Assembly: GCA_963698385.1 (NCBI GenBank)
Contig: CAVOQP010000010.1
Location: 529,518 to 593,517, forward strand
Length of the DNA stretch: 64,000 nucleotides
Direction of reading: 5' to 3'
DNA from: an uncultured Acidimicrobiia bacterium
GTDB taxonomy: Bacteria > Actinomycetota > Acidimicrobiia > Spongiisociales > JAENVV01
The position numbers were made by a program, and so were the translations under genes. Below, in pieces: positions 6,460 through 63,585 of this stretch (within the stretch, counting starts at the first letter, position 1; the number at the start of each line of letters is the position of its first letter). A model generated the notes under the pieces. It had not been told where the DNA came from and did no database searches. It saw nothing but the letters and a program-made list of their open reading frames with translations.

Positions 6460-7098
6460 GCGGACTGCTGCCACAACGACTACCGGAAGGTCTTCCGCAC
6501 CGCGGAGGGATTCCGCGACCTCAAGCGGTATGAGAAGCGAGGCCTGCAAGGGTCCGAGGCGACGATCGCTCGGTTCGTCCGCGACCTGGCCATCCGCGAC
6601 GCGTCCCTCATCGAAGTGGGGGCAGGGGCGGGCACGCTCCATGTCGACCTCCTCACGACCGGGGCTGCCTCGGCGGTGGCCGTCGACATCTCCGCAGGAT
6701 GGAACCCCTCGGCGGCCACGCTCCTCGAGCGGAAGGATCTCTCCCGGCGGGTCAACCGGGTCGTGGGTGACTTCGTCGAGCAGTCCGACACCCTCGAGGC
6801 GGCGGACGTCGTCCTCCTTCACCGGGTCATCTGCTGCTACCCCGAGTGGATGGACCTCGTGGATGCCGCGGCCACGCATGCCAAGCGGGCCGTCGTGTTC
6901 ACCGTCCCCCGCGGGAACCTCCTGGCGCGCGTGGTGCTTCTCGGGTTCAATGCCTGGCTTCGTATCCAAGGCTGCGGATTCGAGTCGTTCCTCCATCCGA
7001 TCGACCAGATCCTCGACCGGTTCGCCACCCGAGGGTTCCGAGTGACCGGCGAGGACCCGACCCTGGCGTGGGTCACCTACCGGGTCGAACGCGGATAG
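6457..7098 (+). CDS. Class I SAM-dependent methyltransferase (small; BchM/ChlM-like layout)
   Basis: VGAGAGTL glycine-rich SAM motif, 213 aa. Confidence 0.7.
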   Translation: MADCCHNDYRKVFRTAEGFRDLKRYEKRGLQGSEATIARFVRDLAIRDASLIEVGAGAGTLHVDLLTTGAASAVAVDISAGWNPSAATLLERKDLSRRVNRVVGDFVEQSDTLEAADVVLLHRVICCYPEWMDLVDAAATHAKRAVVFTVPRGNLLARVVLLGFNAWLRIQGCGFESFLHPIDQILDRFATRGFRVTGEDPTLAWVTYRVERG

Positions 7099-7108
7099 CA
7101 GCCCGGGC

Positions 7109-8791
7109 TCAGGACCAGGGGTCGAGACCGAGGACCGCGGTCGGGACCGCCGGGCGGAGCGGGGCAACCGGGCCGATCCGCTCGTAGCCCGCCTCGGGCC
7201 GCGGGTCGACCTCTCCCTTGTTCGGCCAAAAGGACAGCGCACGCTCGGCCAGGGCAGTGATCGTGAGGGACGGGTTGGCGCCGAGATTGGCCCCGACCGC
7301 CGCTCCATCCACCACGTGGAGACCGGCGACCCCGTGGACCCGGTGGTAGCCATCGATGACGCCCGACCGAGCGTCGGGGGCGATGTTGGCCCCGCCGAGG
7401 ATGTGGGCAGTGGTGGGGATGTCGAGCAGCACCTCGTTGACGGCACTCCCGGGGAAGCCGCCCATGGTCTTGGCGGCCACCCGCGCCGCCTCGTTGGCCT
7501 CGGGGATGTAGGTGGGGTTGGGTGTGCCGTGGCCCTGTTCGCTCGTGAGCCGGCCTCGTCGCCCCTTGAGAAAGACCCGGAGGCTGTTGTCTCGGCTCTG
7601 CATGACGAGAAGGATCACCGTCCGCTCGGCCCAGTGCTTGAGTGAGAACGAGCGGAAGAACGTCACCGGCCGGCGGAGGACGGCGCCAAGGAATCGGACC
7701 TGTCGCGGAATCCTCCCGCCACCGTCGACGAGGATCGTCGCCAACAGGCCCATGACGCTGCTCCCGGCCGGGTAGCGGACCGGTTCGATGTGGGTGTCGG
7801 GCAGGGGGTGGATCGACGAGGTGATCGCCACCCCATGGGAGTAGTCAATCGTCGTGTCGAGGGCGGACGCCCCGAGCAACGCTTCGGAGTTGGTGAGCAC
7901 CCGGTGCCCCACCCTGTCGGACAGGCCCGGGAGTCTTCCACGGGCCGCGAGTTGGAGGAGGAGTCGGGTGGTGCCCAGGGCGCCGGCGGCGAGGATCACC
8001 TGCCCGGCCTCGAACGTGCGGCGCCGCTTGCGGATCCACGCCCCCGGACGCTCGGTGGTGATGCGGAATCGTCCATCGGGGAGGCGCTCGATGTCCGTGA
8101 CCTGATGCTCGGCGTGGACTGTCGCGCCGGCTCGTTCGGCCAGGTAGAGGTAGTTGCGGTCGAGGGTGTTCTTGGCGTTGAATCGGCACCCGACCATGCA
8201 ACCACCGCACGACGTGCAACCGGCCCGTGCCGGCCCGGCCCCCCCGAAGTACGGGTCGGGGACCGACATGCCGGGGGCGCCCAGGAACACACCGATCGGT
8301 GTGGGACGGAACGTGTCCTCGACCCCGAAGTGGGCAGCGATGGAGCGGAGGACGTCATCGGCCGGGGTGTCGCCCACGAACTCGGTGACGCCGAGCATGC
8401 GCCTCGCCATCGCGAACCAGGGGGCGAGTTCGGCCTTCCAGTCGGTCATCGAGGCCCAGGTGGCGTCCTGGTAGAAGGCGTCGTGCGGTTCGTAGAGCGT
8501 GTTGGCGTAGACGAGGGATCCGCCGCCGACCCCCGCGCCGCTGAGCACGAGGATGTCCTTGAGGAGGGTGAGGCGCTGGATACCGCGCAGGCCGAGGCGG
8601 GGGAACCACAGGAACTTGCGCAGGTTCCAGTTCGTCGTGGGGAAGTCGGAGGGGGCGTAACGCCGTCCGGCCTCGAGGACGCCGACCGTGTAGCCCTTCT
8701 CGGTGAGGCGGAGCGCGCTCACGCTCCCACCGAACCCACTCCCAACGATGACCACGTCGTACTGCACGTCGCCAGACGCTACCCCCACCAC
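7109..8791 (-). CDS. GMC-family FAD oxidoreductase, cholesterol-oxidase-like
   Basis: YDVVIVGSGFGGSVSALRLTEKGYTVGVLEAGRRY FAD-binding fold and GMC C-terminal motifs. The first 17 codons of ORF 7109..8842 lie inside repeat element A, so the start is moved to the GTG at 8791. Confidence 0.75.
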   Translation of the reverse strand: MVGVASGDVQYDVVIVGSGFGGSVSALRLTEKGYTVGVLEAGRRYAPSDFPTTNWNLRKFLWFPRLGLRGIQRLTLLKDILVLSGAGVGGGSLVYANTLYEPHDAFYQDATWASMTDWKAELAPWFAMARRMLGVTEFVGDTPADDVLRSIAAHFGVEDTFRPTPIGVFLGAPGMSVPDPYFGGAGPARAGCTSCGGCMVGCRFNAKNTLDRNYLYLAERAGATVHAEHQVTDIERLPDGRFRITTERPGAWIRKRRRTFEAGQVILAAGALGTTRLLLQLAARGRLPGLSDRVGHRVLTNSEALLGASALDTTIDYSHGVAITSSIHPLPDTHIEPVRYPAGSSVMGLLATILVDGGGRIPRQVRFLGAVLRRPVTFFRSFSLKHWAERTVILLVMQSRDNSLRVFLKGRRGRLTSEQGHGTPNPTYIPEANEAARVAAKTMGGFPGSAVNEVLLDIPTTAHILGGANIAPDARSGVIDGYHRVHGVAGLHVVDGAAVGANLGANPSLTITALAERALSFWPNKGEVDPRPEAGYERIGPVAPLRPAVPTAVLGLDPWS

Positions 8792-8810
8792 GCAAGACTC
8801 GAGCCGTGTG

Positions 8811-8896
8811 GACTCGAACCCAGGGTTCGAGACCACACCCATGGGCGTTCTCCGGGCCCGAGACCACCTGGAGGTGGTCTCGAACCCTGGGTTCGG
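8811..8896. repeat. Palindromic MITE/REP-like element, family 1, copy A
   Basis: TIRs CTCGAACCCAGGGTTCGAG / CTCGAACCCTGGGTTCGG flank an inner hairpin GACCACCTGGAGGTGGTC. The 40-nt core is identical to copy B. Confidence 0.7.
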
Positions 8897-10318
8897 CTAC
8901 GCGGGCAGGGCGGTGAGGTAGGTGTCGATGGCGGCGGCGGCTCGGCGGCCATCGGCGAGGGCGAGGATGACCGTCGCCCCGCCGCTCGTGATGTCGCCTC
9001 CCGCGAACACGCCTGGAATCGAGGTGGCGCCGGTCGCGGGATCCACCTCCAGCGTCCCACGGCGGGTCGTCACGAGGCCGGGGGTGGCCCGCGACAGGAT
9101 CGGGTTGGGCTGGTTCCCGACCGCGATGATCGCCACGTCGCAGCGCCGGGTCTCGATCGCGCCCGGGATCGCCACCGGCCGGCTCCGCCCGTCGTCGTCG
9201 GGTTCGCCCAACTCCATCTGCTGCACCGTCACCGAGTGCAGCCAGCCCTCATCGCCTGCGAACGCGGTGGGGCCCACGAGGAACTCGAGCACCACGCCTT
9301 CCTCCCGGGCGTGCACCACCTCTTCCCGGCGGGCCGGCATCTCGGCCTCGGAGCGGCGGTAGAGCACGGTGACCGGGCTCCCGCCGAGGCGGAGGGCGGT
9401 TCGTGCCGCATCCATGGCCGTGTTGCCACCCCCGACCACCACCACCGGTCTTCCCTCGAAGTCGTACACCGGGGTCTCCGACTCGGGGTCCCACGCCCGC
9501 ATGAGGTTCACCCTGGTCAGGAACTCGTTGGCCGAGTAGACCCCGATAAGGTCCTCTCCCTCGACGTGCAGGAAGCGCGGAAACCCGGCGCCGGTCCCGA
9601 CGAACACCGCATCGAAACCCTCCTCCTCGACGAGGGCGGCGAGCGACGTACCCGGGCCGATGAGGACGTCGGTCTCGAAGGTCACACCCATCTCGGCAAG
9701 GCGGCCGATCTCGGCGGACACGATCGCCTTGGGGAGTCGGAACTCGGGGATCCCGTAGGTGAGCACTCCGCCCAATTCGTGGAGCGCCTCGAATACCGTG
9801 ACCGCGTGCCCGGCCCGGATGAGGTCGCCGGCACAGGCGAGGCCCGACGGGCCGGACCCGACCACAGCCACGCTCCGCCCGGTGGCGGGGAGGGGGTCTC
9901 GACCGGGGTCGAGCGCATGCTCCCTCGCCCAATCGGCCACGAACCGTTCCAGGTGGCCGATGGCGATCGGGCGGCCCTTCTTGCCCAACACGCACGCTCC
10001 CTCACACTGCGATTCCTGGGGACACACCCTTCCGCACACCCCAGGGAGCGAGTTGTCGGCGGCGATGACGTCGGCCGCCCCGGCGATGTCCCCGCCGGCG
10101 ACCTTGCCGATGAACTCGTCGATCCGGATCCCCACCGGGCAGCCTTCGACACAGGTGGGGTGCGTGCACATGAGGCAGCGAGAGGCCTCGAGCGCCGCCA
10201 ACCCGCTCGTGTACCCCAGGTTGACCTCGACGAACCCGCTCGCCCGCTCGCCGGCATCCCGGGCGGGCATCCCGGTCCGCTCCAATGCCATCCGCTCCCG
10301 CTTGGTGAGTTCAGGCAT
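8897..10318 (-). CDS. Glutamate synthase small-chain-like NADPH oxidoreductase (GltD/NfnB/SudA-like; 2x[4Fe-4S] plus FAD/NAD)
   Basis: Cys clusters CLMCTHPTCVEGCP..CGRVCPQESQCEGAC and the dinucleotide fold VAVVGSGPSGLA. The start at 10318 overlaps the upstream gene's stop by 8 nt. Confidence 0.85.
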   Translation of the reverse strand: MPELTKRERMALERTGMPARDAGERASGFVEVNLGYTSGLAALEASRCLMCTHPTCVEGCPVGIRIDEFIGKVAGGDIAGAADVIAADNSLPGVCGRVCPQESQCEGACVLGKKGRPIAIGHLERFVADWAREHALDPGRDPLPATGRSVAVVGSGPSGLACAGDLIRAGHAVTVFEALHELGGVLTYGIPEFRLPKAIVSAEIGRLAEMGVTFETDVLIGPGTSLAALVEEEGFDAVFVGTGAGFPRFLHVEGEDLIGVYSANEFLTRVNLMRAWDPESETPVYDFEGRPVVVVGGGNTAMDAARTALRLGGSPVTVLYRRSEAEMPARREEVVHAREEGVVLEFLVGPTAFAGDEGWLHSVTVQQMELGEPDDDGRSRPVAIPGAIETRRCDVAIIAVGNQPNPILSRATPGLVTTRRGTLEVDPATGATSIPGVFAGGDITSGGATVILALADGRRAAAAIDTYLTALPA

Positions 10319-11141
10319 CCGCCAACTCCGCCATCTGGCACTCCTCGAAGGCCCGGTAGGCCCGGTTCCTCGCCGCGAGGAGGTCGAAGTCGACGAGGTG
10401 CGCATCGAACTCGGGCCCATCCACGCAGGCGAACCTCGTCTCTCCGCCGACGCTCACCCGGCACCCGCCGCACATCCCGGTGCCGTCGACCATGATCGGG
10501 TTGAGGGACGCCACGGTGGGAATGCCCGCATCCCGGGTGGCCCCGGCCACCGCCGCCATCATCGGGATCGGGCCCACGGCGAACACGTGGTCGATCGGCC
10601 CAGCGGCCATGCGATCAAGGAGGGCGTCCGTCACGAGCCCTTTCCTGCCCGACGAGCCGTCATCGGTGGTCACTGTGAGGGTGTCGGAAGCGGCCGCCAT
10701 CTCGGCGAGGAGCAGCAGCAGCGACGCAGTCCGGGCGCCGACGATCGCGTGCACGGTGTTGCCCGCCGCCCGCAGCGCTTTGGCCACGGGGAGGGCGATC
10801 GCCGAGCCCACGCCTCCGCCGACCACCACGCAGGTGCCGAATCGGCGGATCTCGGTCGGCTTCCCGAGGGGGCCGAGGACGTCGGCCAGGTGGTCCCCCA
10901 CCGCGAGATCGGCGAAACCCTGGGTCGTGGCGCCGAGCATCTGGACCACGAGTGTGATCGTCCCCTCCTGGGGGTCGTGGTCGCTGATCGTGAGTGGGAT
11001 GCGCTCACCCGCGTCAGTGACGCGGACGATGACGAACTGGCCCGGCCGGGCGCCGTGGGCAACCCGGGGCGCCTCGACGACACATCGCACGACGTCGGGG
11101 CCGATGCTCGTCGCCTCCCGTATCCGGAAACGGTGTTCCAT
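10311..11141 (-). CDS. Ferredoxin-NADP(+) reductase-like FAD/[2Fe-2S] subunit (NfnA/SudB/PyrK-like)
   Basis: FAD/NAD-binding fold and C-terminal CGGCRV 2Fe-2S motif. Translationally coupled to the GltD-like gene. Confidence 0.8.
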   Translation of the reverse strand: MEHRFRIREATSIGPDVVRCVVEAPRVAHGARPGQFVIVRVTDAGERIPLTISDHDPQEGTITLVVQMLGATTQGFADLAVGDHLADVLGPLGKPTEIRRFGTCVVVGGGVGSAIALPVAKALRAAGNTVHAIVGARTASLLLLLAEMAAASDTLTVTTDDGSSGRKGLVTDALLDRMAAGPIDHVFAVGPIPMMAAVAGATRDAGIPTVASLNPIMVDGTGMCGGCRVSVGGETRFACVDGPEFDAHLVDFDLLAARNRAYRAFEECQMAELADA

Positions 11142-11206
11142 GCCCCAAGGCTATCGGGAGCTCCGGGGCCGGCCGTCAACCACCCCGGGCCGAACCAGCG
11201 ACGGTG

Positions 11207-11340
11207 CCTCGAACCCAGGGTTCCAGGCCACCCCGCAAAGCGTTCTGTGGGCCCCAGACCACCTGGAGGTGGTCTCGAACCCTGGGTTCCACATGTGGGG
11301 CCCTCAGAACACGTTTCGGCTGGACGTGGAACCCTGGACA
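11207..11340. repeat. Palindromic MITE/REP-like element, family 1, copy B, plus an extra solo TIR fragment
   Basis: Same TIRs and inner hairpin as copy A. An additional GTGGAACCCTGGACAC fragment sits at 11325-11340, immediately before the ATG of the aph fragment. Confidence 0.7.
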
Positions 11341-11345
11341 CACTC

Positions 11346-11795
11346 ATGCTGGCCGACGAGGCCGCCGAATGGGTGCGTGACCTTCCCGAGCTGTGGGAGT
11401 GCGCGGGACGCCCATTCGAGGAATCGCTCCTCGACACGGCAACAACGGCCCTCGCCCAACTCGCGGCCTCGCAGGGTGAGCACGTGCTCCTCCACCAGGA
11501 CCTACACGGGGACAACGTCCTCAGCTCCCAGCGGGAACCGTGGCTCGTGATCGACCCCAAGCCCCTCGTCGGGGAACGCGAGTTCTCCCTCGCCCCGATC
11601 ATCCGCTCCCACGAGTTCGGCCACGGCAGGGACGAAGTGATCGGTCGCCTCGACCGACTCAGCAGCTCCCTCGGACTCGACAGGCAACGGGCGGGCCTCT
11701 GGGCGCTGGGACAGACACTGGCGTGGGCGATCGAAGGCGCCGAAGCAGATGCGCGCCATGTCGAGACGGCGCGGTGGCTGGCGGCGTCGCTATGA
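11346..11795 (+). pseudogene. Aminoglycoside/choline-kinase-type phosphotransferase (APH family), C-terminal fragment only
   Basis: HQDLHGDNVL catalytic loop and C-lobe of 149 aa. No N-terminal ATP-binding lobe is present: upstream is repeat B and then an opposite-strand gene. Confidence 0.5.
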
Positions 11796-12461
11796 GAACG
11801 AGCGGAACGCCGCCTTGGCGCCCGAGTTGATGGCGGGTGAGTGCCCGAAGCAAGCGATGTCGAAGTGGAGGGCGCCGAGACGACGAATCGACGCGTCGAT
11901 GGTCGTGGTCCGGGCGTTGAAGTAGCCACGGACGATGGTGCCCTTCTTGTTGCGGGCGGCATCGCCCACGAACAGCACCCCCGGGCCCCGGTTGAGGACG
12001 TAGGAGACGTGGCCCTCCGTGTGGCCGGGGGTCTCATAGGCAACCAGGTCGCCGGGGAGCCGCATCCCCTCCGAGACGAGCCGATCGACCTCGACACCGG
12101 TAGCGGTCGGGACGAGTCTCATCAGCGGTTTGAGAAACGGGAACCGGAACGCGACCGGCGGCGGCGGAGCCGGCTCGTCGCCCCGCACGGCCGGGGCGTC
12201 GGTCGGCGAGGCGTAGAGCTGCGCTCCACTCTCCTGCTTGAGCTCGGCGGCGGAGCCGGTATGGTCCGAATGCGAGTGCGTGAGCATGATCGCCCGGATG
12301 TCGGAGCTCGAGCGTCCGATCGAGCCCAGGGCCCCGAGGATGCGACCTCCCTTGCCTGGTAGTCCGCTGTCGATCAGGGTCACTCCGTCGTCGCCATCCA
12401 CGATGAACATCCGGACATGCTGGATCCGGACGGAGTACACGCCCGCCGCGATCTTCTCCAT
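11790..12461 (-). CDS. MBL-fold metallo-hydrolase
   Basis: LTHSHSDHTG motif. Start placed at MEKIAAGVYSV; the ORF table extends further upstream. Confidence 0.75.
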   Translation of the reverse strand: MEKIAAGVYSVRIQHVRMFIVDGDDGVTLIDSGLPGKGGRILGALGSIGRSSSDIRAIMLTHSHSDHTGSAAELKQESGAQLYASPTDAPAVRGDEPAPPPPVAFRFPFLKPLMRLVPTATGVEVDRLVSEGMRLPGDLVAYETPGHTEGHVSYVLNRGPGVLFVGDAARNKKGTIVRGYFNARTTTIDASIRRLGALHFDIACFGHSPAINSGAKAAFRSFS

Positions 12462-12547
12462 GGGTCGCGACGCTAGCCAGACGGCCGGGCCGGCGTCGGG
12501 CCACGGGGGTGGCGTCTCGAATGCACCACCCGCCCTACCCTCCGACC

Positions 12548-13423
12548 ATGCGGTATCGACTCGCGCTCGTCGGCCTCGCGGTCCTCCTCGTCCTCCCTGC
12601 CTGCACCGCCAATCGCCCGTTCGAGGAGGTGCGGGACGGTGAACGGTCGTACACCGTGGTCCGCCCCCCTCGCCAAACCGAGCCCGCACCCACCGTCGTT
12701 GTCCTGCACGGCGGGGGCGGCACCGCCAAGCGGGTCCAGCGCTACACCGGGTTCGATGCCGTCGTGAGAAGCGACGGGATCGTCGTGGTCTACCCCGAAG
12801 CGGTTGCCGGGCACTGGAACGACGGGCGTCCGATCGACCTGGTGGACGGTATCGATGACGTGGGCTTCCTCATCGACCTCATCGACGACCTCGTCGAGGA
12901 GGGCTTGGCCGATCCGCGGCAGGTATACGTACTCGGGGCGTCCAACGGCGGGATGATGACGCTGCGAATGATCTGCGAACACCCCGACCGCTTCGCCGCG
13001 GCCGCGGTGGTGATCGCCAACGAACCGCTCGACCCGACCTACGAGTGCCGTGGGGAACCGGTGCCGATCCTGTTCCTGCATGGGACCGACGATCCGCTCA
13101 TGCCCTTCCTCGGTGGGGAGGTGGCAGCCCAGGCCAAGGAGGAGCACGGCTTCGTCTTGGGTGCCGCCGCAACCGTGGACAGGTGGGCAACGGCGAACGG
13201 CTGCTCGGGCCACTCGGAGGAGACACTCGGCACCGACGACACCGTCACCGCCACACGCCGCTCGTATGCCTGTTCAGCCGCGCCGCTGGAATGGGTCGTG
13301 CTCGACGGGGGAGGTCACGACTGGCCGGGAGCCGAGCAGTCCGCAGCCCGCGAGGCACTTCTCGGATCCTCAGGCCCGATCGACGCCACCGCGCTCATCT
13401 GGGAGTTCTTCTCGGAAGGGTGA
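12548..13423 (+). CDS. Secreted alpha/beta-hydrolase lipoprotein (PHB-depolymerase/esterase family)
   Basis: Signal plus lipobox MRYRLALVGLAVLLVLPAC, and LHGGGG...GASNGG motifs. Confidence 0.7.
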   Translation: MRYRLALVGLAVLLVLPACTANRPFEEVRDGERSYTVVRPPRQTEPAPTVVVLHGGGGTAKRVQRYTGFDAVVRSDGIVVVYPEAVAGHWNDGRPIDLVDGIDDVGFLIDLIDDLVEEGLADPRQVYVLGASNGGMMTLRMICEHPDRFAAAAVVIANEPLDPTYECRGEPVPILFLHGTDDPLMPFLGGEVAAQAKEEHGFVLGAAATVDRWATANGCSGHSEETLGTDDTVTATRRSYACSAAPLEWVVLDGGGHDWPGAEQSAAREALLGSSGPIDATALIWEFFSEG

Positions 13424-13425
13424 GG

Positions 13426-13914
13426 TCAGCGAGCCCCGAGGGTCATACCGATGATCGCGATCACCATCACCCACGCCAGCTGGACGCCGGTCCGCATCAG
13501 CTTGCCCTGCAGCGCGCCCAGGCGTTGAGCCTGCTCGGTGGTGGGAGGATCGCCGGCGAGCTCGGCCTGGACGCCTCCGAGCTTCCTGGCGGTCCGCTGT
13601 TGCACCCCGTGGCCGATGCCGGTGGCGACGAGACCCGCCAGGGCCCCAATGGTCAGCATCCAGGTGCGGAAGTCCTTGGGTGACCCCTCCACGGCATCGG
13701 TCCACATCAGGATGCCGAAGAGGACAGTGACCACACTGGCCACCATCATGACCATGCGCATGCGGCCGCTGGCGAGGGCGCCCATGAACGGCCCGGCCGC
13801 CGGACCCGCCTTGGCGGCCGCCGGCCCGATGAACCACGCCATGGCGAAGGTGCCGCCGGCCCACACGATGGCGCCCCCCACGTGCAGGAGGTTCCAGAGG
13901 TCGATGAGTTCCAC
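13426..13914 (-). CDS. Hypothetical membrane protein (about 4 TM)
   Basis: GTG start at VELIDLWNLLHVGGAIVWAGG with a hydrophobic C-terminal half. The long N-terminal extension of ORF 13426..14508 is low-complexity and overlaps 13988..14329. Confidence 0.45.
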   Translation of the reverse strand: MELIDLWNLLHVGGAIVWAGGTFAMAWFIGPAAAKAGPAAGPFMGALASGRMRMVMMVASVVTVLFGILMWTDAVEGSPKDFRTWMLTIGALAGLVATGIGHGVQQRTARKLGGVQAELAGDPPTTEQAQRLGALQGKLMRTGVQLAWVMVIAIIGMTLGAR

Positions 13915-13987
13915 GGGTGCCCTTTCAGTGCTCCACGGAATGTAGTGGCAGGCCGCGGTTGCGCCCGGCCGAGCCGTCGAAGCCGGC

Positions 13988-14329
13988 CTACCCGTGGGAG
14001 GGAGGGGCCACCGGTCCGTAGAGGTTGAACTTCTCGTCCCGCTCGCGGGAGGTGTCGACGAACGAGAGGTACTGCCGAGCGAGCTCGGTGAACACCCCGG
14101 ACGTGTCGGCCGCGGCCTTCCGCAAGTCAGGCATGTTGTTGTCGGCGTATCGCCAGACCTGGTGGTAATCGCAGGGATCGGCGGCCGCAAGCGGTCGATA
14201 TGTCCCGAGGTACTCGTAGTTCTTGGGGGCTCGCTCGAGCATGTCCTGCTCGTGGTCTGCAAGCCACGCGCGGAACTCGTCGTCCTTGCCGGGTGCGACG
14301 AAGAATCCCCAGTCGTAGAACAGCGCCAT
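13988..14329 (-). CDS. Hypothetical 113-aa protein (possible EthD/Dabb-like alpha-beta barrel)
   Basis: Clean ORF with balanced composition, MALFYDWGFFVAPGKDDEFRAW... Confidence 0.45.
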   Translation of the reverse strand: MALFYDWGFFVAPGKDDEFRAWLADHEQDMLERAPKNYEYLGTYRPLAAADPCDYHQVWRYADNNMPDLRKAAADTSGVFTELARQYLSFVDTSRERDEKFNLYGPVAPPSHG

Positions 14330-14509
14330 CTCGTGCCTCTCTCGCGATCTCGTGCGAAGGAACCTAGCGGGAGGTCAGCGTCCGCGGCCGGCTGGGCACT
14401 CCCGAGTCGGCGGCCGGTGGGTAGGAGGGTTGCCCCCGCTACCCTTTGGGCTGCAGGACGGGTCACCGGTCGCGGCCGGTTCCGTCCTTTCCCTAGATCC
14501 AGGAGCACG

Positions 14510-14923
14510 ATGCCATCAGCCGGAGACCACGTCGAGGTGCACTACACGGGCACACTCGATGACGGCACCCAGTTCGACTCGTCCGTCGGCCGCGAGCCGC
14601 TGGCGTTCGAGATGGGCGCGGGTCAGCTGATCCCCGGCTTCGAGGCAGCGATCGCAGGCCTTGCAATCGGCGAGTCGACGACGTTCAGGCTCGAACCCGG
14701 AGAAGCGTACGGCGAGTTCGACGAGTCGCGGGTGCTCAGCCTCCCCGTCGCAGGAGCCCCGGACACGTTGGATGTGGGCCATCGGGTCGAGGTCGGAAAC
14801 GGTGTCCAGGGATTGATTACCGAGATCACCGGCGAAGCGGTGGTCGTCGACACCAACCATCCGCTGGCCGGATTGGCGTTGACGTTCGAAGTGAAGTTGC
14901 TCGAAGTAGGAGGTGCCAGCTGA
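14510..14923 (+). CDS. FKBP-type peptidyl-prolyl cis-trans isomerase (SlyD/FkpB-like)
   Basis: AGGAG RBS then ATG at 14510. VHYTGTLDDGTQFDSS...FEMGAGQLIPGFE FKBP signature. Confidence 0.8.
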   Translation: MPSAGDHVEVHYTGTLDDGTQFDSSVGREPLAFEMGAGQLIPGFEAAIAGLAIGESTTFRLEPGEAYGEFDESRVLSLPVAGAPDTLDVGHRVEVGNGVQGLITEITGEAVVVDTNHPLAGLALTFEVKLLEVGGAS

Positions 14924-15144
14924 TGGCGAACGATGACTACATCAAGGCGAGTGGCACGGTCCTCCAGGTCATGGGCAATGCCACCTTCAGGGTCGAGGTC
15001 GAAGGCGGCCTCGAGGTGATGGCGAAGGCAGCCGGACGCATGCGCCGCGGCCGCAAGATCCGGATCCTCCCCGGTGACAAGGTCGAGGTCGAAGTCTCGA
15101 CCTATGACCCCACCAAGGGTCGCATCGTCTGGCGCTACCGCTAG
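14923..15144 (+). CDS. infA: Translation initiation factor IF-1
   Basis: MANDDYIKASGTVLQVMGNATFRVEVEGG...KIRILPGDKVEVEVSTYDPTKGRIVWRY. Start overlaps the FKBP stop. Confidence 0.9.
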   Translation: MANDDYIKASGTVLQVMGNATFRVEVEGGLEVMAKAAGRMRRGRKIRILPGDKVEVEVSTYDPTKGRIVWRYR

Positions 15145-15167
15145 GGAGCTCTAGCCCGGGCACGAGC

Positions 15168-15242
15168 CCGAGCCAACCCAGGGTTCCAGACCACACCCAA
15201 CGCCGTTCTGTGGGCCCCAGACCACCTCAATGTGGTGCACAG
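15168..15242. repeat. Palindromic MITE/REP-like element, family 1, copy C (degenerate right end)
   Basis: CCAACCCAGGGTTCCAGACCACACCC..GTTCTGTGGGCCCCAGACCACCT matches copies A and B. The right TIR is eroded. Confidence 0.6.
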
Positions 15243-15304
15243 CCCGCGATTCAGGACCGAGCCGAGCCGGACGGTCGCGAGTCGGAATCGCTAGGTTCGA
15301 GTCC

Positions 15305-15757
15305 ATGCAGTCGAAGGCCACAACCGTTGAGCAATACCTGGCTGACCTCCCCGACGACCGCCTCGAGGCGATCGAAGCAGTCCGAGACGTGATCCTCGCC
15401 AATCTCCCCGAGGGGTACGAGGAGACCGTCAACTGGGGCATGATCACCTACCAGGTCCCCCTCGCCCGATACCCGGACACGTACAACAAGAAGCCGCTGA
15501 TGCTGGCTGCACTCGCCTCCCAGAAGCACCACATGGCCGTGTACCTCACCGGCGTCTATGCCAACGCCGAGAGCCGGACCCGGTTCGTGTCGGCCTACAA
15601 AGAGACGGGGAAGCGAATGGACATGGGCCAGTCCTGCGTCCGATTCAGGAAGCTGGACCAACTGCCCCTCAACCTGATCGGCGATGCCATCGCGGAGTTC
15701 TCCGTGGAGGAGTTCATCGCGCTCACCGAGGGAGCCCCGTACAGGAGCCGGGGTTAG
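15305..15757 (+). CDS. DUF1801 (YdhG-like) domain protein
   Basis: MQSKATTVEQYLADLPDDRLEAIEAVRDVIL..., 150 aa. Confidence 0.65.
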   Translation: MQSKATTVEQYLADLPDDRLEAIEAVRDVILANLPEGYEETVNWGMITYQVPLARYPDTYNKKPLMLAALASQKHHMAVYLTGVYANAESRTRFVSAYKETGKRMDMGQSCVRFRKLDQLPLNLIGDAIAEFSVEEFIALTEGAPYRSRG

Positions 15758-15759
15758 TG

Positions 15760-15833
15760 TCCTCCTACCCGCATGATGTCGCCTTCGGCGACGATGCGGG
15801 GGCCCCTTCCTCCCACCTGCGGCGGGAGGACAG
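15760..15833 (+). repeat. Double-hairpin repeat, family 2, copy 1 (candidate terminator / structured 3' element)
   Basis: TCCTCCTACCCGCATGATGTCGCCTTCGGCGACGATGCGGGGGCC..TCCTCCCACCTGCGGCGGGAGGACAG, immediately after the stop of the DUF1801 gene. About 85% identical to 50416..50490. Confidence 0.6.
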
Positions 15834-16644: not shown

Positions 16645-17343
16645 ATGAAGCCTTTTGCCATCGCCGTTGCCTTCGTTGCGTCTGTCCTGGTCATGGCTGC
16701 CGCCACCTGGGCCCCCACCGAGGGGGCGCTCGGCGCGGTTGCGGAGACGACGACCACCGTCGGGGCCCCGGTCACCACCACTCCCATCGCTCCCGCGCCC
16801 ACCACGACCTCGACCTCCACCACGACCACCTCGGTGGCGGTGAGTACCACGACCACCACCACGACGACGACGCTTGCTCCCGCGGCAACGACGCCGAAGC
16901 CCGCTCCAACGACCACCCGCCCGCCACGCCCGGCCACCACCACCACGACCACCACCACCGTGGCCGCCGTCACTCCCCACCACGACCCCGACTTCGCGTC
17001 GGGGATCTTCCAGTACGCCAACTCGGCCCGTTCGGCAGCCGGTGTCGGCACGCTCAAGTGGTCGAGTTCGCTCGCCGGCTACGCCAAGAACTGGGCCAAG
17101 AGGCTGGGCGACTCCGGCGACCTCGGCCACTCCGACTTCGGCTCGCTGCTCGGGACCACCTGGGGCACGGTTGGCGAGAACGTCGCCATGGGGCACCTCA
17201 ACCCAACCGCCATGCACAAGGGCTGGATGGCGTCGAGCAGCCACAAGGCCAATATCATCAACGCCGACTTCACACACGTCGGGACTGCCGTCTGGGTCGA
17301 TGCTTCCGGGACCACCTGGGGCGTCCAGGTGTTCGGCGGCTAA
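16645..17343 (+). CDS. Secreted CAP/SCP/PR-1 domain protein with Thr/Pro-rich linker
   Basis: Signal peptide MKPFAIAVAFVASVLVMAAATWA. C-terminal GENVAMGH...HKANIINADFTHVGTAVW CAP motifs. Confidence 0.75.
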   Translation: MKPFAIAVAFVASVLVMAAATWAPTEGALGAVAETTTTVGAPVTTTPIAPAPTTTSTSTTTTSVAVSTTTTTTTTTLAPAATTPKPAPTTTRPPRPATTTTTTTTVAAVTPHHDPDFASGIFQYANSARSAAGVGTLKWSSSLAGYAKNWAKRLGDSGDLGHSDFGSLLGTTWGTVGENVAMGHLNPTAMHKGWMASSSHKANIINADFTHVGTAVWVDASGTTWGVQVFGG

Positions 17344-17393
17344 TCAACAAAGTTGGGGAACGACATCTCCCCCGTTGCGCCGATGCATGAAGC

Positions 17394-18344
17394 ATGCGCA
17401 ACACCAACCGAGGCTCCCTTGCAGGGGAGACCATCGCCCCCCAACTTCCGCTGGGAGTCCTGGTTCGGCGATGGCTCGTCGTCATCCTTGCCACCGCGGT
17501 ATTCGGAGCGGGACTGTCGGCCGTCGCCGGGTCCTTCCAATCCGCCGAGGCGCCCACTGCTCCCGAGACCAGCCAGGTCGCCGACTCCGTCGACGCCAGT
17601 GCTGCGACACAGGAGATCCCCATCTCCACCACCCCCTCTCCAAGTTCCGACGTGACCCGGTCAGCCGCCGCCTCGACCACCTCCCCCACGACCACGGGAG
17701 CACCAGCCCCGACCACGGAGGCACCGGCCTCGACCACCACCTCCCAGGACACCACGCCTGCGGTTGATGAGACCCTCCCGCCAGACACCGACTCGTCGAT
17801 TCCCGCCACGACCGTTGCGCCCGCCGCCACCACCACCACGCCAGCACCAACCACAACGACCACCGTTACCCCGGCAACGACCACCACGACAGCCCCGGTG
17901 ACCACCACCACGGCGGCACCGACGACCACCACCACGGCAGGCCCGACGACGACCACCACTGTCGCCCCCGCGGCCCCGGCCTCGGGCGACACCGCCTTCG
18001 CCTCGTCGCTCGTCTCGCTCGCCAACAAGGCGAGGGCATCGGAGGGCATAGCCCCCCTCAGCGTCTCAAGCTCCCTCACCAGCTACGCCCAGGACTGGGC
18101 GGCGCACCTCGCTGACACCCTCACCCTCAGCCACTCGAACATCGGGAGCCTGCTCGGGGCATGGTCGACCGTTGGTGAGAACGTCGCCGCCGGGCACTCA
18201 TCGGCCCAGGTGATGCACACGGCGTGGATGAACTCGGCAGGTCACCGGGCCAACATCCTGAACCCGAACTTCACGCACATCGGGGTTGGTGTCGTGATCG
18301 ACGCCAACGGCGCTCCCAGGGGCGTCCAGGTCTTCGGCGGATAG
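17394..18344 (+). CDS. Secreted CAP/SCP/PR-1 domain protein, tandem paralog
   Basis: C-terminal domain about 60% identical to the previous gene (GENVAAGH..HRANILNPNFTHIGVGV), with a long T/P/A linker. Confidence 0.75.
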   Translation: MRNTNRGSLAGETIAPQLPLGVLVRRWLVVILATAVFGAGLSAVAGSFQSAEAPTAPETSQVADSVDASAATQEIPISTTPSPSSDVTRSAAASTTSPTTTGAPAPTTEAPASTTTSQDTTPAVDETLPPDTDSSIPATTVAPAATTTTPAPTTTTTVTPATTTTTAPVTTTTAAPTTTTTAGPTTTTTVAPAAPASGDTAFASSLVSLANKARASEGIAPLSVSSSLTSYAQDWAAHLADTLTLSHSNIGSLLGAWSTVGENVAAGHSSAQVMHTAWMNSAGHRANILNPNFTHIGVGVVIDANGAPRGVQVFGG

Positions 18345-25950: not shown

Positions 25951-25976
25951 GGCGGTCGGGCGCACGACTGACGAAG

Positions 25977-26046
25977 TAGGACTCGGGACTCGGGACTTGG
26001 GACTCGGGACTCGGGACTCGGGACTCGCACCTGGCACCTCGCACGC
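25977..26046. repeat. Tandem heptamer array (GGGACTC) x about 7, then (GCACCTN) x about 3
   Basis: GGACTCGGGACTCGGGACTTGGGACTCGGGACTCGGGACTCGGGACTCGCACCTGGCACCTCGCAC. Confidence 0.8.
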
Positions 26047-36344: not shown

Positions 36345-36445
36345 GGAGTCCCAAGTCCCAAGTCCCGAGTCCCAACAAGCGTTAATCGTCAAGGTACGAG
36401 TCCTGAGCCCCCAGTCCTCGGTCCTCGGTCCTCGGTCCTTGGCTG
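36345..36445. repeat. Tandem heptamer arrays: (GAGTCCC, the reverse complement of GGGACTC) x about 4, then (GTCCTCG) x about 4
   Basis: GGGAGTCCCAAGTCCCAAGTCCCGAGTCCCAAC ... CAGTCCTCGGTCCTCGGTCCTCGGTCCTTGG, between convergent genes. Confidence 0.75.
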
Positions 36446-46153: not shown

Positions 46154-47563
46154 TTGGCCACTGACACAGAAGCGGCACACGCGGTGGATGGTGCCACCGT
46201 CGTGACCCGCTGGGCGCTGGTGGCGGGCGCTGTCCTGATCGCCTTGGCCGCCTTCCTCCACTTCAGCGCATGGCTCTCGCTGGTCTTCCCGCCGGTCTTC
46301 GGCGGGTTGGGATTCGCGCAATTCGGACGACTGAAACCCATGGCCGATGCCGTCCTGATGTTCGGTGGCTTCTACTTCGTCAATACCGGCGCCCTCTACA
46401 TCCTCCTCCCGCGCCTCACCGGCACCACACTGCGGGATGTCGGCCTCGCGCGTGCCAACACCCTGTGGACGCTGCTCGTGGGCGTCGCCTCGGTCGTCGC
46501 CGTGGGTATCGGACTCGGCGACGGAAGGGCCGGCTTCGAGTTCCCGCTCATCCTCGACGCCGCCTATCTCACAACCCTCTTCGTCCCGGCCTGGATCACC
46601 CGGCGTGCATTCTCGACTCGAACCGAGGACTCGCTCCACCCGACCGTGTGGGCCCTGATGACGGGGTTCCTCGCCCTGGCGGTTGCCCTCGTTGTCGCCA
46701 ACTTCCCCCTCACGGAGGCCACCGGAGGTTGGATCCAAGTGGCGTTCGGACGCGGCCTCGTGCTGTGGACCTGGGTGCTCGGGTCGGGCGTCGGCATCGC
46801 CTGGTACGTGGTGCCCAAGGCATCCGGTCGTCCGCTGTTCAGTCGTCAACTGGCTCAGATCGTCGTCTTCTCGATGCTTCTCCCACCCGCGGTCGCAGGG
46901 CTGGCCGGGCTGGCATTCGGCCCGGTCGCCGATTGGGCCGAGACCATCGGCGTCGTCTTCCGATTCTCCCTACTGGTCCCCGCGCTCGCAGTGCCGGCCG
47001 GGATCCTCGGCACCATCAACGGGGCCGATGGGCCACGGATCGCCTCGTCGCCCGCCGTTCGTACTGCGCTCGCCGGCTCTTGGCTGCTCGCCGGAGGCGG
47101 CGTCGCCAGCGCGCTCTCCGCCTTTCCCTACGTCCAGTCCGTTGTCGGACTCACGACCTTCGAGGACGGAACCATGGCGCTCCTGGTAGGAGCCGCCACG
47201 CTCTTCGCCGCTTCGTTCATCTACCACTGCCTCCCGGAGGTGACCGGCAAACCCCTCTTCTCGACGACGTTGGCCATCGACCACATGAAGCTCGTGCTGT
47301 GGGGGTCGGGCTTGACTGCCCTCTTCCTCTGGTACGCCGGGATCTACTCCGGTGCCGGGTTCCGGGGCGGCGCCCTCGGGGGACTGTGGACGGCGGTCGG
47401 TGACGGATTCGGTGATGCCACGGACGGGGCGATCCCCCTCTACATGATCGCACTCCTCGGGATGGCGTTGGTGGCGGCCGGCCAGGTCGCCTTCATGATC
47501 AACGTCCTCGGCACGACCCGCGGCGGTGCGGCCACGACCGAGTCCGAGGAGGTGGCCGCATGA
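46154..47563 (+). CDS. 12-TM membrane protein with three internal 4-TM sequence repeats; occupies the ccoN-like position but lacks the heme-copper-oxidase His ligand set
   Basis: GAAGGAG RBS. 12 hydrophobic segments. Repeated motif Y.LLPRLTGTTL / WYVVPKASGRPLFSRQL / YHCLPEVTGKPLFSTTL, one per third. Only 4 His in the TM region and no HH pair. Its stop overlaps the ATG of the FixO-like gene. Confidence 0.55.
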   Translation: MATDTEAAHAVDGATVVTRWALVAGAVLIALAAFLHFSAWLSLVFPPVFGGLGFAQFGRLKPMADAVLMFGGFYFVNTGALYILLPRLTGTTLRDVGLARANTLWTLLVGVASVVAVGIGLGDGRAGFEFPLILDAAYLTTLFVPAWITRRAFSTRTEDSLHPTVWALMTGFLALAVALVVANFPLTEATGGWIQVAFGRGLVLWTWVLGSGVGIAWYVVPKASGRPLFSRQLAQIVVFSMLLPPAVAGLAGLAFGPVADWAETIGVVFRFSLLVPALAVPAGILGTINGADGPRIASSPAVRTALAGSWLLAGGGVASALSAFPYVQSVVGLTTFEDGTMALLVGAATLFAASFIYHCLPEVTGKPLFSTTLAIDHMKLVLWGSGLTALFLWYAGIYSGAGFRGGALGGLWTAVGDGFGDATDGAIPLYMIALLGMALVAAGQVAFMINVLGTTRGGAATTESEEVAA

Positions 47564-50415: not shown

Positions 50416-50490
50416 CCCTCCTACCCCGCAAGAAGTCGCCTGCGGCGACGATGCGGGGGCCTCTTCCTCCCACCGTCGGTGGGAGGACAG
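50416..50490 (+). repeat. Double-hairpin repeat, family 2, copy 2
   Basis: CCCTCCTACCCCGCAAGAAGTCGCCTGCGGCGACGATGCGGGGGCCTCTTCCTCCCACCGTCGGTGGGAGGACAG. The second stem carries compensatory changes relative to copy 1. Confidence 0.6.
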
Positions 50491-63445: not shown

Positions 63446-63468
63446 CCAGCGCCCGCTTCTACCCGTGA

Positions 63469-63585
63469 CGTGGGACTCGGGACTCGGGACTCGGGACTTG
63501 CTCGGGACCAGGGACTCGGGACTCGGGACTCGCTCGGGACTCGGGACTCGGGACTCGCTCGGGACTCGGGACTTGCCCAGGACTC
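63469..63585. repeat. Tandem heptamer array (GGGACTC) x about 14, with higher-order 25-mer periodicity (GGGACTC x3 + GCTC)
   Basis: GGGACTCGGGACTCGGGACTCGGGACTTGCTCGGGACCAGGGACTCGGGACTCGGGACTCGCTC... Confidence 0.8.

Follow-up and report, generated by a model that had tools for sequence, protein, structure and literature searches.

The closest described counterparts of the elements reported here are the REP, REPIN and BIME sequences of Enterobacteria and Pseudomonas, together with their RAYT transposases (PMC3116915, PMC3337134, PMC2817692). Such sequences are imperfect palindromes, short and rich in G+C, that lie outside genes, often directly past a stop codon. They come singly, in inverted doublets folding as a long hairpin, or in clusters of mosaic or tandem type, and make no target duplications; repeats flank a conserved small gene whose product cleaves DNA, whereas most copies are orphans dispersed elsewhere. 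Bacterial MITEs such as Correia/NEMIS, ERIC, RUP and Nezha (reviewed in PMC10969869, PMC3184786) measure 80-150 nt, have terminal inverted repeats (TIRs) and no ORF, form hairpins, lie between genes, vary in presence or absence, and are accompanied by a longer element in which the same ends enclose a gene. Two protein families also enter the comparison. AbiEi is the antitoxin of the AbiE type IV toxin-antitoxin/abortive-infection system (PDB 6y8q; PMC3985639, PMC7319586), whereas Vsr, DUF559 proteins and the homing endonuclease I-Bth0305I form a single PD-(D/E)xK clade, clade 58 (PMC3424549).

Here we describe a repeat family that is specific to Acidimicrobiia, with three copies in the window (the whole 64-kb stretch of DNA analysed), and, as a novel result, a nuclease-type gene that units of this family bracket in other genomes. 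The family has the REP and MITE traits listed above, its DNA-cleaving protein being a predicted one. It differs from REPs in lacking a GTAG or CGTC head, in its actinomycetote (Acidimicrobiia) host, in the only three copies documented in the window, and in the flanked gene, which specifies an AbiEi-type winged helix (wHTH) with a predicted Vsr/DUF559 PD-(D/E)xK domain instead of a Y1 HUH transposase; moreover, REPs are usually species-specific, whereas the sequence of the Acidimicrobiia unit is retained between distant genomes. Unlike MITEs, the elements have no target-site duplications, the gene of the longer element encodes no recognised transposase, and the TIR is itself palindromic and reused as an internal module. 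Repeats and bracketed gene together hint at mobility of the REP/MITE kind with an unusual enzyme behind it. The explanation we favour, with some reserve, is that the window copies are orphan, non-autonomous, REP/BIME-like and MITE-like nested palindromes whose likely partner is an AbiEi/DUF559 nuclease, not a RAYT, IS200 or TnpB protein.

The building block of the family is a unit of ~55 nt composed of a palindrome (M1, CGAACCCWGGGTTCG, with a CCWGG centre), a short hairpin 3-4 nt away from it, and a box (M2, GGCCCACAGAAC). The hairpin differs in sequence between lineages with its pairing retained. The window copies are inverted doublets: an M1-led left end is joined to one complete unit in the opposite orientation. 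M1 stands at both ends as an inverted repeat, and a single long hairpin takes in the entire element. An earlier note on this DNA had described three nested-palindrome copies of about 85 bp, and a repeat search with shuffle controls established that they are real: the window contains a three-member family of 82-nt repeats, all on the plus strand (Table 1), clustered in 6.4 kb of the 64 kb (n = 3 documented copies), and neither this search nor nhmmer and a covariance model revealed a further copy within the 64 kb. The 12-mer AACCCAGGGTTC (at most one mismatch) was observed nine times against 0.18 expected, a count that none of 100 shuffles reached, and the core GCGTTCTNNGGGCCCNAGACCAC three times against 0.01 expected. 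The unit covariance model scored 64.3 bits for copy A (minus strand), 67.4 for copy B, 49 for copy C and 27.5 for the partial unit beside copy B (at 11274-11315). Two details of the first description hold: the TIR is a palindrome in itself, and GACCACCTGGAGGTGGTC forms a perfect hairpin. The identity of copies A and B over about 40 nt was only partly borne out: 34 nt in the right part are identical, and the longer stretch is 40/41 with one mismatch rather than a clean 40. The extra piece noted at 11325-11340 belongs to an inverted half copy, which pairs with 11215-11256 (42-nt arms, 79% complementary) and forms with copy B a composite palindrome of ~130 nt. The left-M1 palindrome of copy A extends ~12 nt further left than originally described, to ~8801.

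Table 1. Repeat copies and associated features in the window, and loci of other genomes with units bracketing the nuclease-type gene
Feature	Position or locus	Strand	Remarks
Copy A	8801..8896 (82-nt family match 8813-8894)	+	Reference; complete inverted doublet
Copy A, left M1 CGAACCCAGGGTTCG	8815-8829		Mirrored arm GTGTGGACTCG at 8802-8814
Copy A, M2 box GTTCTCCGGGCC	8847-8858		
Copy A, hairpin GAGACCACCTGGAGGTGGTCTC	8860-8881		
Copy A, right M1 CGAACCCTGGGTTCG	8881-8895		
Copy B	11208..11289	+	87% vs copy A; complete inverted doublet
Copy B, M1	11210-11223		
Copy B, M2 GTTCTGTGGGCC	11242-11253		
Copy B, hairpin	11256-11275		
Copy B, right M1	11276-11289		
Inverted partial unit beside copy B	11290..11340	-	42-nt half copy at 11296-11337; CACATGTG mini-palindrome, GGGGCCCTCAGAAC box, degenerate M1 GGAACCCTGG
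APH(6)-type aminoglycoside phosphotransferase, 3' fragment	11346..11795	+	149 codons; abuts copy B
Copy C	15171..15252	+	74% vs copy A; decayed
Copy C, left M1 CCAACCCAGGGTTC	15173-15186		
Copy C, M2	15206-15217		
Copy C, hairpin GACCACCTCAATGTGGTG	15220-15237		
Copy C, right M1 CACAGCCCGCGATTC	15238-15252		Degenerate
Bracketing units	L006, L003		
Bracketing units	L067-69		
Bracketing units	L070/71		
Bracketing units	L072		1048-nt contig, both ends inside units
Bracketing units	L057		Diverged units
Bracketing units	L075		~50-bp inverted ends

In fold predictions, copy A forms a hairpin with a 22-bp stem (RNA, -62.4 kcal/mol, z = -7.5; DNA, -34.3 kcal/mol, z = -6.8), copy B with its half copy adopts a three-way fold (-76.9 kcal/mol, z = -5.1), and copy C, whose right TIR has been lost, folds no better than shuffles. 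Across the family the M1-adjacent hairpin is maintained through compensatory changes, with 76.7% of cells paired against 64.9% in shuffles and a covariation score of 0.315 against 0.159 for shuffles and 0.05-0.10 for slid partners. Strong predicted structures and some covariation, in a 55-nt unit conserved in sequence over genomes of 59-70% GC, are what one would expect of a family of structured RNAs, either small or cis-regulatory, that Acidimicrobiia conserve and transcribe from these loci. We nevertheless regard this explanation as very improbable, given that conservation resides chiefly in the primary sequence of M1 and M2 with few covarying pairs, that the gene contexts are unrelated, that a locus may hold anything from a half unit to an array, and that orientation to flanking genes is mixed (copy A antisense to the plus convention, copy C sense). 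Promoter-like or terminator-like signals are lacking as well, and comparison of the window copies with Rfam and tRNA models yielded no family match, only generic hairpin hits far below gathering scores. The small-RNA gene suggested by the earlier note is unsupported (no Rfam match), and its terminator suggestion fared no better, the copies being devoid of a U-tract or canonical intrinsic terminator.

All three copies are intergenic; the earlier note had placed them between genes or at gene ends. Copy A lies 1 nt past the stop codon of a gltD-like gene (8897-8899) and before the start of a GMC oxidoreductase gene (~8770), copy B between the start of a gene for a 276-aa product (11141) and a 5'-truncated APH(6) gene (ATG at 11346), and copy C between an infA-like stop codon (15144) and a DUF1801 start (15305). 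The APH(6) fragment is without its ~140 first codons, as judged by comparison with L025's full-length APH (blastn, tblastn), and the products of the relatives' genes match Pfam APH_6_hur. Copy B marks the breakpoint of this truncated gene, which is an associated rearrangement scar outside the repeat proper.

At none of the three window sites is the element present in relatives of 74-81% identity. No element occurs between the same two genes at the site of copy A (L054, L055, L056) or upstream of the orthologous 276-aa gene at that of copy B (L054, L056), and at that of copy C there is a 47-nt spacer free of it (L022, L024, L025, L027, L028); the unit model R1 found no match in ~70 kb of syntenic DNA of relatives. 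The three window elements were gained (or lost) relative to close relatives without target duplication. Flanking duplications, which the earlier note had proposed as a check, were found at no window copy, and none flanks the ~12 elements inspected; because the nearest relatives are only this similar, exact empty-site junctions or duplications are not definable. Since the elements are missing at orthologous sites, the MITE/REP-like, non-autonomous reading holds, the elements being non-autonomous because they carry no gene. What stands of the mobile reading first proposed is a short, TIR-bounded, hairpin-forming, non-coding and dispersed family; what does not is the type of cognate enzyme. The relatives' empty sites hold unrelated hairpins (TCCAC..GTGGA).

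An 18-base pattern matched 20 loci, 18 of which lie on MAG contigs that are GC-rich and carry, for the most part, an Acidimicrobiia or Actinomycetota label. Units aligned (A3) with 73% mean column identity; as the 20-locus scan was anchored on M1, the conservation of M1 among those loci is partly by construction. Model R1 detected many units in the matched loci and none elsewhere in the window. Units in other genomes are likewise intergenic, mostly 1-25 nt past stop codons or between convergent genes, and are arranged as singlets, inverted doublets or ~70-80-nt tandem arrays, with three or more units; one MAG has near-identical copies at unrelated loci (L003 and L018). TIRs, small size, absence of an ORF, intergenic placement and presence/absence would also suit a cut-and-paste MITE of the conventional kind, descended from an IS that has a DDE transposase and CGAACCCWGGGTTCG terminal inverted repeats. 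That origin has, in our estimate, a marginal chance of being correct: besides the missing direct duplications, no DDE transposase lies near any copy, plasmids and viral contigs gave no matches to the elements, and the sole longer element sharing these ends codes for a predicted wHTH-nuclease.

This longer element was seen in seven independent contigs from other genomes (7/7 lineages examined), where units bracket a gene of ~300 codons to form a cassette of ~1.1-1.2 kb with M1-led inverted repeats as outer ends; the ends of the window elements align with these gene-flanking units. Between prfC and a SnoaL gene L057 has 1278 nt, and L073, whose prfC is 90% identical, has no cassette there. Many homologues sit on contigs of ~1.0-1.2 kb, which suggests assembly breaks at flanking repeats. 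The window itself contains no homologue of the gene. The ~300-aa product, which matches Pfam AbiEi_4 and DUF559/MTES_1575, is, according to its AF2 model (pLDDT 91.3), an AbiEi-type winged helix fused to a predicted Vsr/DUF559-type PD-(D/E)xK nuclease. In Foldseek comparisons the N-terminal ~200 residues adopt the AbiEi fold (6y8q, E = 5e-5), and the C-terminal ~100 resemble the catalytic domain of I-Bth0305I (3r3p, TM 0.79) and a DUF559 protein (3hrl, TM 0.77), with the D...ExD...H signature of the Vsr-like 'EDxHD' group; D232, E243, D245, H250 and D259 are invariant in homologues. The protein differs from AbiEi systems in having a C-terminal predicted nuclease domain, no adjacent gene for the AbiEii nucleotidyltransferase toxin, and repeats that are also dispersed over the genome. 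With I-Bth0305I it appears to share the joining of a selfish-element-type nuclease to a separate DNA-binding module, yet its gene is free-standing between housekeeping genes, bracketed by palindromes and outside any intron or intein.

In the mechanism we propose, the AbiEi/DUF559 protein would be the trans-acting partner of the elements, in a role comparable to that of RAYTs for REPINs or of IS transposases for MITEs. The protein would bind M1 as a winged-helix dimer and, through its nuclease, introduce a nick or cut at this palindrome or close to it; repair, recombination or strand transfer might then copy or move units. Hairpins inserted right past stop codons would probably act in addition as 3' stabilisers or terminator-like barriers on the transcript.

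A different enzyme could be at work if these were classical REP/REPINs served by a RAYT (Y1 HUH) or IS200/IS605-derived palindromes, with the enzyme encoded elsewhere in the genome and the AbiEi/DUF559 gene merely a favoured neighbour. The anatomy is indeed REPIN-like (inverted doublets as long hairpins, extragenic, no duplications, tandem and mosaic clusters), the three window copies share one strand, as single-strand-specific insertion predicts, and RAYT genes are single-copy and easily missed in 64 kb. IS200/IS605 elements have hairpin-forming ends, asymmetric on left and right, no target-site duplication and possible strand bias. The window elements resemble them in these ends, the missing duplications and a possible strand bias, but their ends are true inverted repeats and neither TnpA(Y1) nor TnpB was found. 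A TnpB, IS200-like or RAYT gene, which the earlier note had suggested seeking, was found neither in the window nor in any element-bearing locus; a search of the window and ~480 kb of loci for a Y1 transposase came up empty (a weak test with an approximate TnpA query), and no transposase family recurs beside the elements. With no GTAG or CGTC head and a non-RAYT gene as the only one repeatedly bracketed, we hold this alternative to be quite doubtful.

Some features of the cassette could instead reflect immobile operator or terminator modules, that is, sites of an AbiEi-like regulator serving autoregulation near its gene and, elsewhere, a regulon or generic 3' hairpins formed and lost locally. 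PMC7319586 reports binding of AbiEi to inverted repeats beside its gene and autoregulation of AbiEi antitoxins via inverted repeats in their promoters. In the cassettes, units are found 55-105 nt before the gene start, with a conserved leader GACAAGGGGGTTCC after them, the palindrome directly past the gene's stop resembles a terminator, and the relatives' empty sites hold the unrelated hairpins mentioned above. In some cassettes (L067) the flanking units are direct, not inverted, and hence an operator/terminator role instead of transposon ends is conceivable there. Part of the genomic context recurs: the cassette follows biotin carboxylase both in L067 and in the P0224 contig, and it adjoins lpdA-like and MM-CoA mutase genes both in L003 and in the P0224 contig. 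Such conservation is as compatible with vertical inheritance of a resident gene as with a jumping gene. However, we judge immobile modules unlikely, and prefer mobile, non-autonomous repeats: dispersed copies mostly follow the stop codons of unrelated housekeeping genes rather than occupying promoters, and the arrays, the near-identical L003/L018 copies, presence/absence and the truncation at copy B favour spreading DNA. The invariance of the predicted nuclease residues likewise counts against such modules, since a pure repressor would have no need of them.

The palindromic repeats of the window, copies A, B and C and a half copy adjoining B (see table), were recovered as an 82-nt family both in the sequence itself and by repeat search. 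The motif counts greatly exceed chance expectation: AACCCAGGGTTC occurs nine times in the window with at most one mismatch (0.18 expected) and the repeat core motif three times (0.01 expected). The earlier note's three-copy palindromic family was thereby borne out, as was its report of identity shared by copies A and B, with the length corrected from about 40 nt to the 34 nt of their identical right end. Searches of the 64 kb with an nhmmer profile and with a covariance model (R1) of the building block described below revealed no additional copy, which leaves the three clustered within 6.4 kb. The elements carry terminal inverted repeats (TIRs), have ends reading (C/G)CGAACCC, are shorter than 300 bp and lack an ORF. 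Copy A, with arms of 27 nt (93% complementary), folds into a hairpin with a 22-bp stem (RNA, -62.4 kcal/mol, z = -7.5; DNA, z = -6.8). Copy B, whose arms are 22 nt long and 91% complementary, forms with the half copy a three-way palindrome fold (-76.9 kcal/mol, z = -5.1). Copy C has lost its right inverted repeat and folds no better than shuffled sequences.

Coordinates of the repeats, of the bracketed genes in other genomes and of associated features (positions are those of the contig named)
Feature	Contig	Position	Strand	Remarks
Copy A	window	8813-8894	+	Family reference; 1 nt past gltD-like stop, ~45 nt before GMC oxidoreductase gene (minus strand)
Copy B	window	11208-11289	+	87% identity to A; between start of 276-aa FAD/NAD-binding gene and APH(6) kinase gene 3' fragment
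Copy C	window	15171-15252	+	74% identity to A; between infA-like and DUF1801 genes
Inverted partial copy, 42 nt	window	11296-11337		Adjoins copy B
APH(6)-type kinase gene, 3' fragment	window	11346-11795		~140 N-terminal codons missing
Gene for P0151	L067-69			Two units upstream, two downstream
Gene for P0154	L070/71			One unit upstream, one palindromic downstream
Gene for P0144	L072			Both ends of the 1048-nt contig fall within units
Gene for P0143	L057 and others			Upstream units diverged (GAACTCAGGGCC...CCCCGAGAAC); same type downstream
Gene for P0224	L075			~50-bp inverted repeat starting GAACCCAGGGTT upstream, matching inverted repeat downstream
Leader motif GACAAGGGGGTTCC	L067	2456-2469
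Leader motif GACAAGGGGGTTCC	L070	2455-2468
Leader motif GACAAGGGGGTTCC	L071	1297-1310
Leader motif variant	L006	~487-500
Leader motif variant	L057	~2467-2480
Leader motif variant	L072	~58-71
9-nt tandem repeat CCTCTCCGG	L070	2325-2363		Directly upstream of cassette
9-nt tandem repeat CCTCTCCGG	L071	1155-1205		Directly upstream of cassette
Hairpins at empty sites	L054	5530-5560, 3205-3250		TCCAC..GTGGA, CCACGG..CCGTGG
Hairpins at empty sites	L056	2325-2365, 10-55		TCCAC..GTGGA, CCACGG..CCGTGG
Long palindrome CGTTTTGGGGCCGTTTCATCGCGTATAGCGCGATCAAATGACCCCAAAACG	L021	1686-1755		Downstream of identical infA-like gene
Unit next to apparent tRNA gene	L019	~6560-6640		tRNA gene on opposite strand
GGGACTC tandem arrays	window	25967-26046, 36346-36375, 63461-63573		Variants GGGACTT; second array inverted
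66-nt palindromic repeat	window	15768-15833, 50425-50490		89% identical; first copy just downstream of DUF1801 gene
241-nt direct repeat	window	47560-47800, 48343-48583		78% identity
ACCACC-type coding repeat	window	16800-18000		Low complexity, Thr/Pro-rich

The window has a G+C content of 67%, and its proteins find their nearest matches among those of Acidimicrobiia metagenome-assembled genomes (MAGs). The intergenic placement already proposed holds for all window copies and for the 18 MAG loci described below. Two main rival explanations, a small-RNA gene and a non-mobile operator or terminator (the operator for an AbiEi-like regulator), concern what such intergenic hairpins might do. Against the small RNA, one of the possibilities raised in the earlier note, stand the lack of any Rfam 15 match at gathering thresholds, a permissive search returning only generic miRNA-like hairpins (20-29 bits against thresholds of 65-94), and the lack of a detectable sigma-70-like promoter near the copies. 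An intrinsic (Rho-independent) terminator, terminator structures having been raised there too, is likewise not supported, with no T run after any copy and no terminator-like site in 8600-15500. A tRNA or tmRNA origin was rejected, ARAGORN being negative and the GGTTCGAG motif making no T-arm.

The position of copy B is exactly that at which the APH(6)-type kinase gene breaks off: homology of the fragment to a full-length relative begins at about codon 140, and the missing N-terminal part was not found elsewhere in the window. A tblastn alignment reaches upstream to 11175 and into copy B because the left TIR of copy B reads LEPRVPGH in the APH frame; the DNA alignment is poor over this extension. 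LEPRVPGH (11208-11231) resembles the IEPCVPGH collinear in a full-length APH gene (L025, a relative's contig, ~715-740), and TCGAACC is common to both at the DNA level. This APH-like reading could be due to chance or to insertion at a site resembling M1, the palindrome defined below. The neighbourhood is rearranged among relatives, with genes for APH, esterase and FKBP present in some and absent from others.

An exact-pattern scan with AACCCAGGGTTCNAGNCCAC of 185,579 species genomes, which did not include the window's own, returned 20 loci. Two are chance matches within coding regions, and the remaining 18 belong to GC-rich contigs of MAGs, for the most part assigned to Acidimicrobiia or Actinomycetota by their labels. 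Viral contigs and plasmids gave no family matches. The common building block is a unit of about 55 nt in which the palindrome M1, CGAACCCWGGGTTCG, is separated by 3-4 nt, in most cases YAG, from a short hairpin, which is followed by the box M2, GGCCCACAGAAC. The window copies correspond to an M1-led left end followed by a complete reversed unit; elsewhere units occur as singlets, as short palindromes of about 52 nt (M1-hairpin-M1'), as M1-centred double units and as tandem arrays with a period of ~70-80 nt, one MAG locus containing nine M1 boxes in 8 kb. An alignment of 16 units (A3) has a mean column identity of 73%. M1 and M2 are conserved in primary sequence, the apparent conservation of M1 being biased by the anchoring of the genome scan on it. 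The hairpin varies by lineage yet stays paired (GACCAC/GTGGTC, GACGTCG/CGACGTC, GACCAGC/GCTGGC), with 76.7% of cells paired versus 64.9% in shuffles and a covariation score of 0.315 versus 0.159 in shuffles and 0.05-0.10 with slid partners; RNAalifold alone detects little covariation in the unit. Family elements are intergenic, most of them 1-25 nt past a stop codon or at places where two genes converge, and a few in divergent regions.

A LexA/Cheo box was rejected on the spacing of M1 (CGAAC-N5-GTTCG, whereas the Gram-positive SOS box has an N4 spacer) and on the placement after stop codons. The attC, dif, parS and uptake sequences were rejected on sequence and copy pattern. In one MAG locus a unit adjoins an apparent tRNA gene, recognised by eye from a GGGGACTCGAACCCCC T-arm and a GCA anticodon region.

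Comparison of orthologous sites showed that the window copies are variable in presence. In five relatives (L022, L024, L025, L027 and L028), chosen by an identical infA-like protein and a DUF1801 gene, site C is empty and the spacer between these genes measures 47 nt, versus 161 nt with copy C in the window. L054 and L056, where the gltD-like proteins are 81% identical, the gene order GMC-gltD-276 aa is kept and the spacers are shorter, have no element at site A or site B, and L055 has none at site A. The unit model found no units in ~70 kb of syntenic DNA of relatives. A metagenome scan by the MBL-fold protein yielded only matches of 26-33% identity, useless for empty-site mapping. Presence and absence at orthologous sites, together with the TIRs, small size and lack of an ORF, are what would be expected of a DDE-type MITE, another main rival, but such elements have a target-site duplication (TSD) around each copy. 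TSDs, which the earlier note had proposed to look for, flank neither A, B and C nor the elements in six other loci (L003, L010, L018, L067, L070 and L075), and at some elements the palindrome merely extends outward into the flank. The relatives are too diverged (74-81%) for exact insertion junctions or TSDs to be defined at the empty sites.

The empty sites of L054 and L056 contain hairpins that resemble the NCCAC..GTGG hairpin of the unit; these could represent decayed units or a favoured target. A different long palindrome lies downstream of the identical infA-like gene in L021.

The earlier note had proposed looking for a cognate TnpB/IS200-like or REP-associated tyrosine transposase. Among 92 ORFs around the elements and 45 ORFs of the window, no recurrent transposase family was present in the top 25 Pfam families listed, a cut-off that could conceal single weak matches. 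A still-unseen RAYT serving the repeats is the remaining main rival; no Y1 homologue was detected with an IS608 TnpA query in the window or the other loci analysed, which is a weak test. What recurs instead is a gene of about 300 codons. In the densest locus, L006, a 300-aa ORF is bracketed by two unit arrays, and in L003 an ORF 56% identical to it lies exactly between the two elements of the locus. Of the 369 family members that could be detected, many lie on contigs of ~1.0-1.2 kb, and every homologue whose contig was read is bracketed by units, in seven independent lineages of MAG and metagenome contigs. The ends of the window elements align with these gene-flanking units.

Gene and units form a cassette of 1.1-1.2 kb with M1-led ends as in the window elements, its product being a predicted winged-helix (wHTH) nuclease and not a known transposase. 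Cassettes occupy at least four contexts between unrelated housekeeping genes; the context is partly common to L067, L003 and the P0224 contig, with biotin carboxylase upstream and lpdA-like and MM-CoA mutase genes adjoining. The cassette is itself present or absent between genomes: the prfC-SnoaL gap contains it in L057 (1278 nt) and measures 59 nt, with no gene or unit, in L073, the prfC sequences being 90% identical. A solo unit lies 1.4 kb from this empty site in L073.

Ahead of the bracketed gene, at 30-45 nt from its start codon, lies the leader motif GACAAGGGGGTTCC, which is conserved across lineages and does not occur in the window. The copy number of the 9-nt repeat CCTCTCCGG differs between the otherwise matching contigs L070 and L071.

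Pfam profiles divide the protein into an AbiEi_4 winged helix and a C-terminal DUF559/REase_MTES_1575 domain, DUF559 scoring above cut-off in the L006 ORF and in the homologues P0154, P0134 and P0192. In an AlphaFold2 model built with 45 homologues (mean pLDDT 91.3), Foldseek matched residues 1 to ~200 to the AbiEi antitoxin 6y8q in the PDB (E = 5e-5), and the last ~100 residues to the catalytic domain of the Vsr-like homing endonuclease I-Bth0305I (3r3p, TM 0.79) and to the DUF559 protein NGO0050 (3hrl, TM 0.77). D232, E243, D245, H250 and D259/R260 are invariant. Profile, modelled fold and residues together indicate a predicted PD-(D/E)xK nuclease of the Vsr/DUF559 type; Vsr, DUF559 and I-Bth0305I form one clade of this superfamily (PMC3424549). 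AbiEi proteins are described as binding to inverted repeats beside their own genes (PMC7319586). The AbiE type IV toxin-antitoxin system has AbiEii beside AbiEi, whereas here only the AbiEi fold is found, no adjacent AbiEii (DUF1814) toxin gene being detected in L057-L071, where the neighbours are housekeeping genes.

Short palindromic repeat families of bacteria are known to be maintained in two ways, by REP/REPIN-RAYT and by IS-MITE pairs, both of which depend on dedicated transposases. The M1 and hairpin modules match the short (20-40 nt), imperfect, extragenic palindromic unit of REPs, and copies A and B the single long hairpin that two inverted units form in REPINs. REPs, however, carry a GTAG/CGTC head, of which the ends of the window copies have neither, and flank a RAYT (a Y1 HUH transposase) where the present units flank an AbiEi_4-DUF559 gene. 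REPs number tens to hundreds per genome; the 64-kb portion of the genome analysed here contains three copies. In anatomy and distribution the repeats work like REP/REPIN-RAYT or MITE-IS systems, but membership of either fails on defining features, with no GTAG head, no TSD, and no Y1 or other known transposase in the loci covered. The MITE/REP-like reading of the earlier note was essentially right; the candidate partner is a different and unexpected one.

The window copies belong to an Acidimicrobiia-wide modular palindrome family that is intergenic, variable in presence and without TSDs, and whose units bracket a wHTH-nuclease gene. On the reading we favour, the nuclease would recognise M1 and drive the spread or maintenance of units, in which case the window copies would be non-autonomous derivatives or orphans; the hairpins may in addition affect transcripts. 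We tentatively propose, as a possibility about which we retain rather more doubt than confidence, that repeats and nuclease constitute an undescribed repeat-enzyme partnership, IS-like or RAYT/REPIN-like, in which a PD-(D/E)xK (DUF559) mobiliser recognises the CCWGG-centred palindrome. We mention purely as speculation that CCWGG, on which M1 is centred, is also the context of Vsr action. The library searched returned no publication describing these repeats or connecting repeats with DUF559, which is not proof of absence.

Orphan palindromes past stop codons together with a palindrome-bracketed small gene make up a REP/MITE-like pattern in a poorly studied actinobacterial class, and the bracketed gene is unusual in encoding a winged helix joined to a Vsr-like nuclease domain. 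Should this protein spread or maintain the repeats, it would represent a new enzyme class for prokaryotic mobile DNA, give a testable function to the AbiEi_4-DUF559 orphan genes that are widespread and unexplained in Actinomycetota, and explain recurrent assembly breaks in Acidimicrobiia MAGs. In the window, the 6 kb marked by the elements are prone to rearrangement and contain a truncated kinase gene of resistance type; the elements also put hairpins of great stability within operons or behind them.

Other repeats were observed in the window. A second, unrelated G+C-rich palindromic repeat of 66 nt has the stems CCCGCATGATGTCGCC..GGCGACGATGCGGG and CCTCCCACC..GGGAGG. The heptamer GGGACTC forms tandem arrays, a long low-complexity repeat lies within coding sequence, and a 241-nt direct repeat probably derives from paralogous genes.
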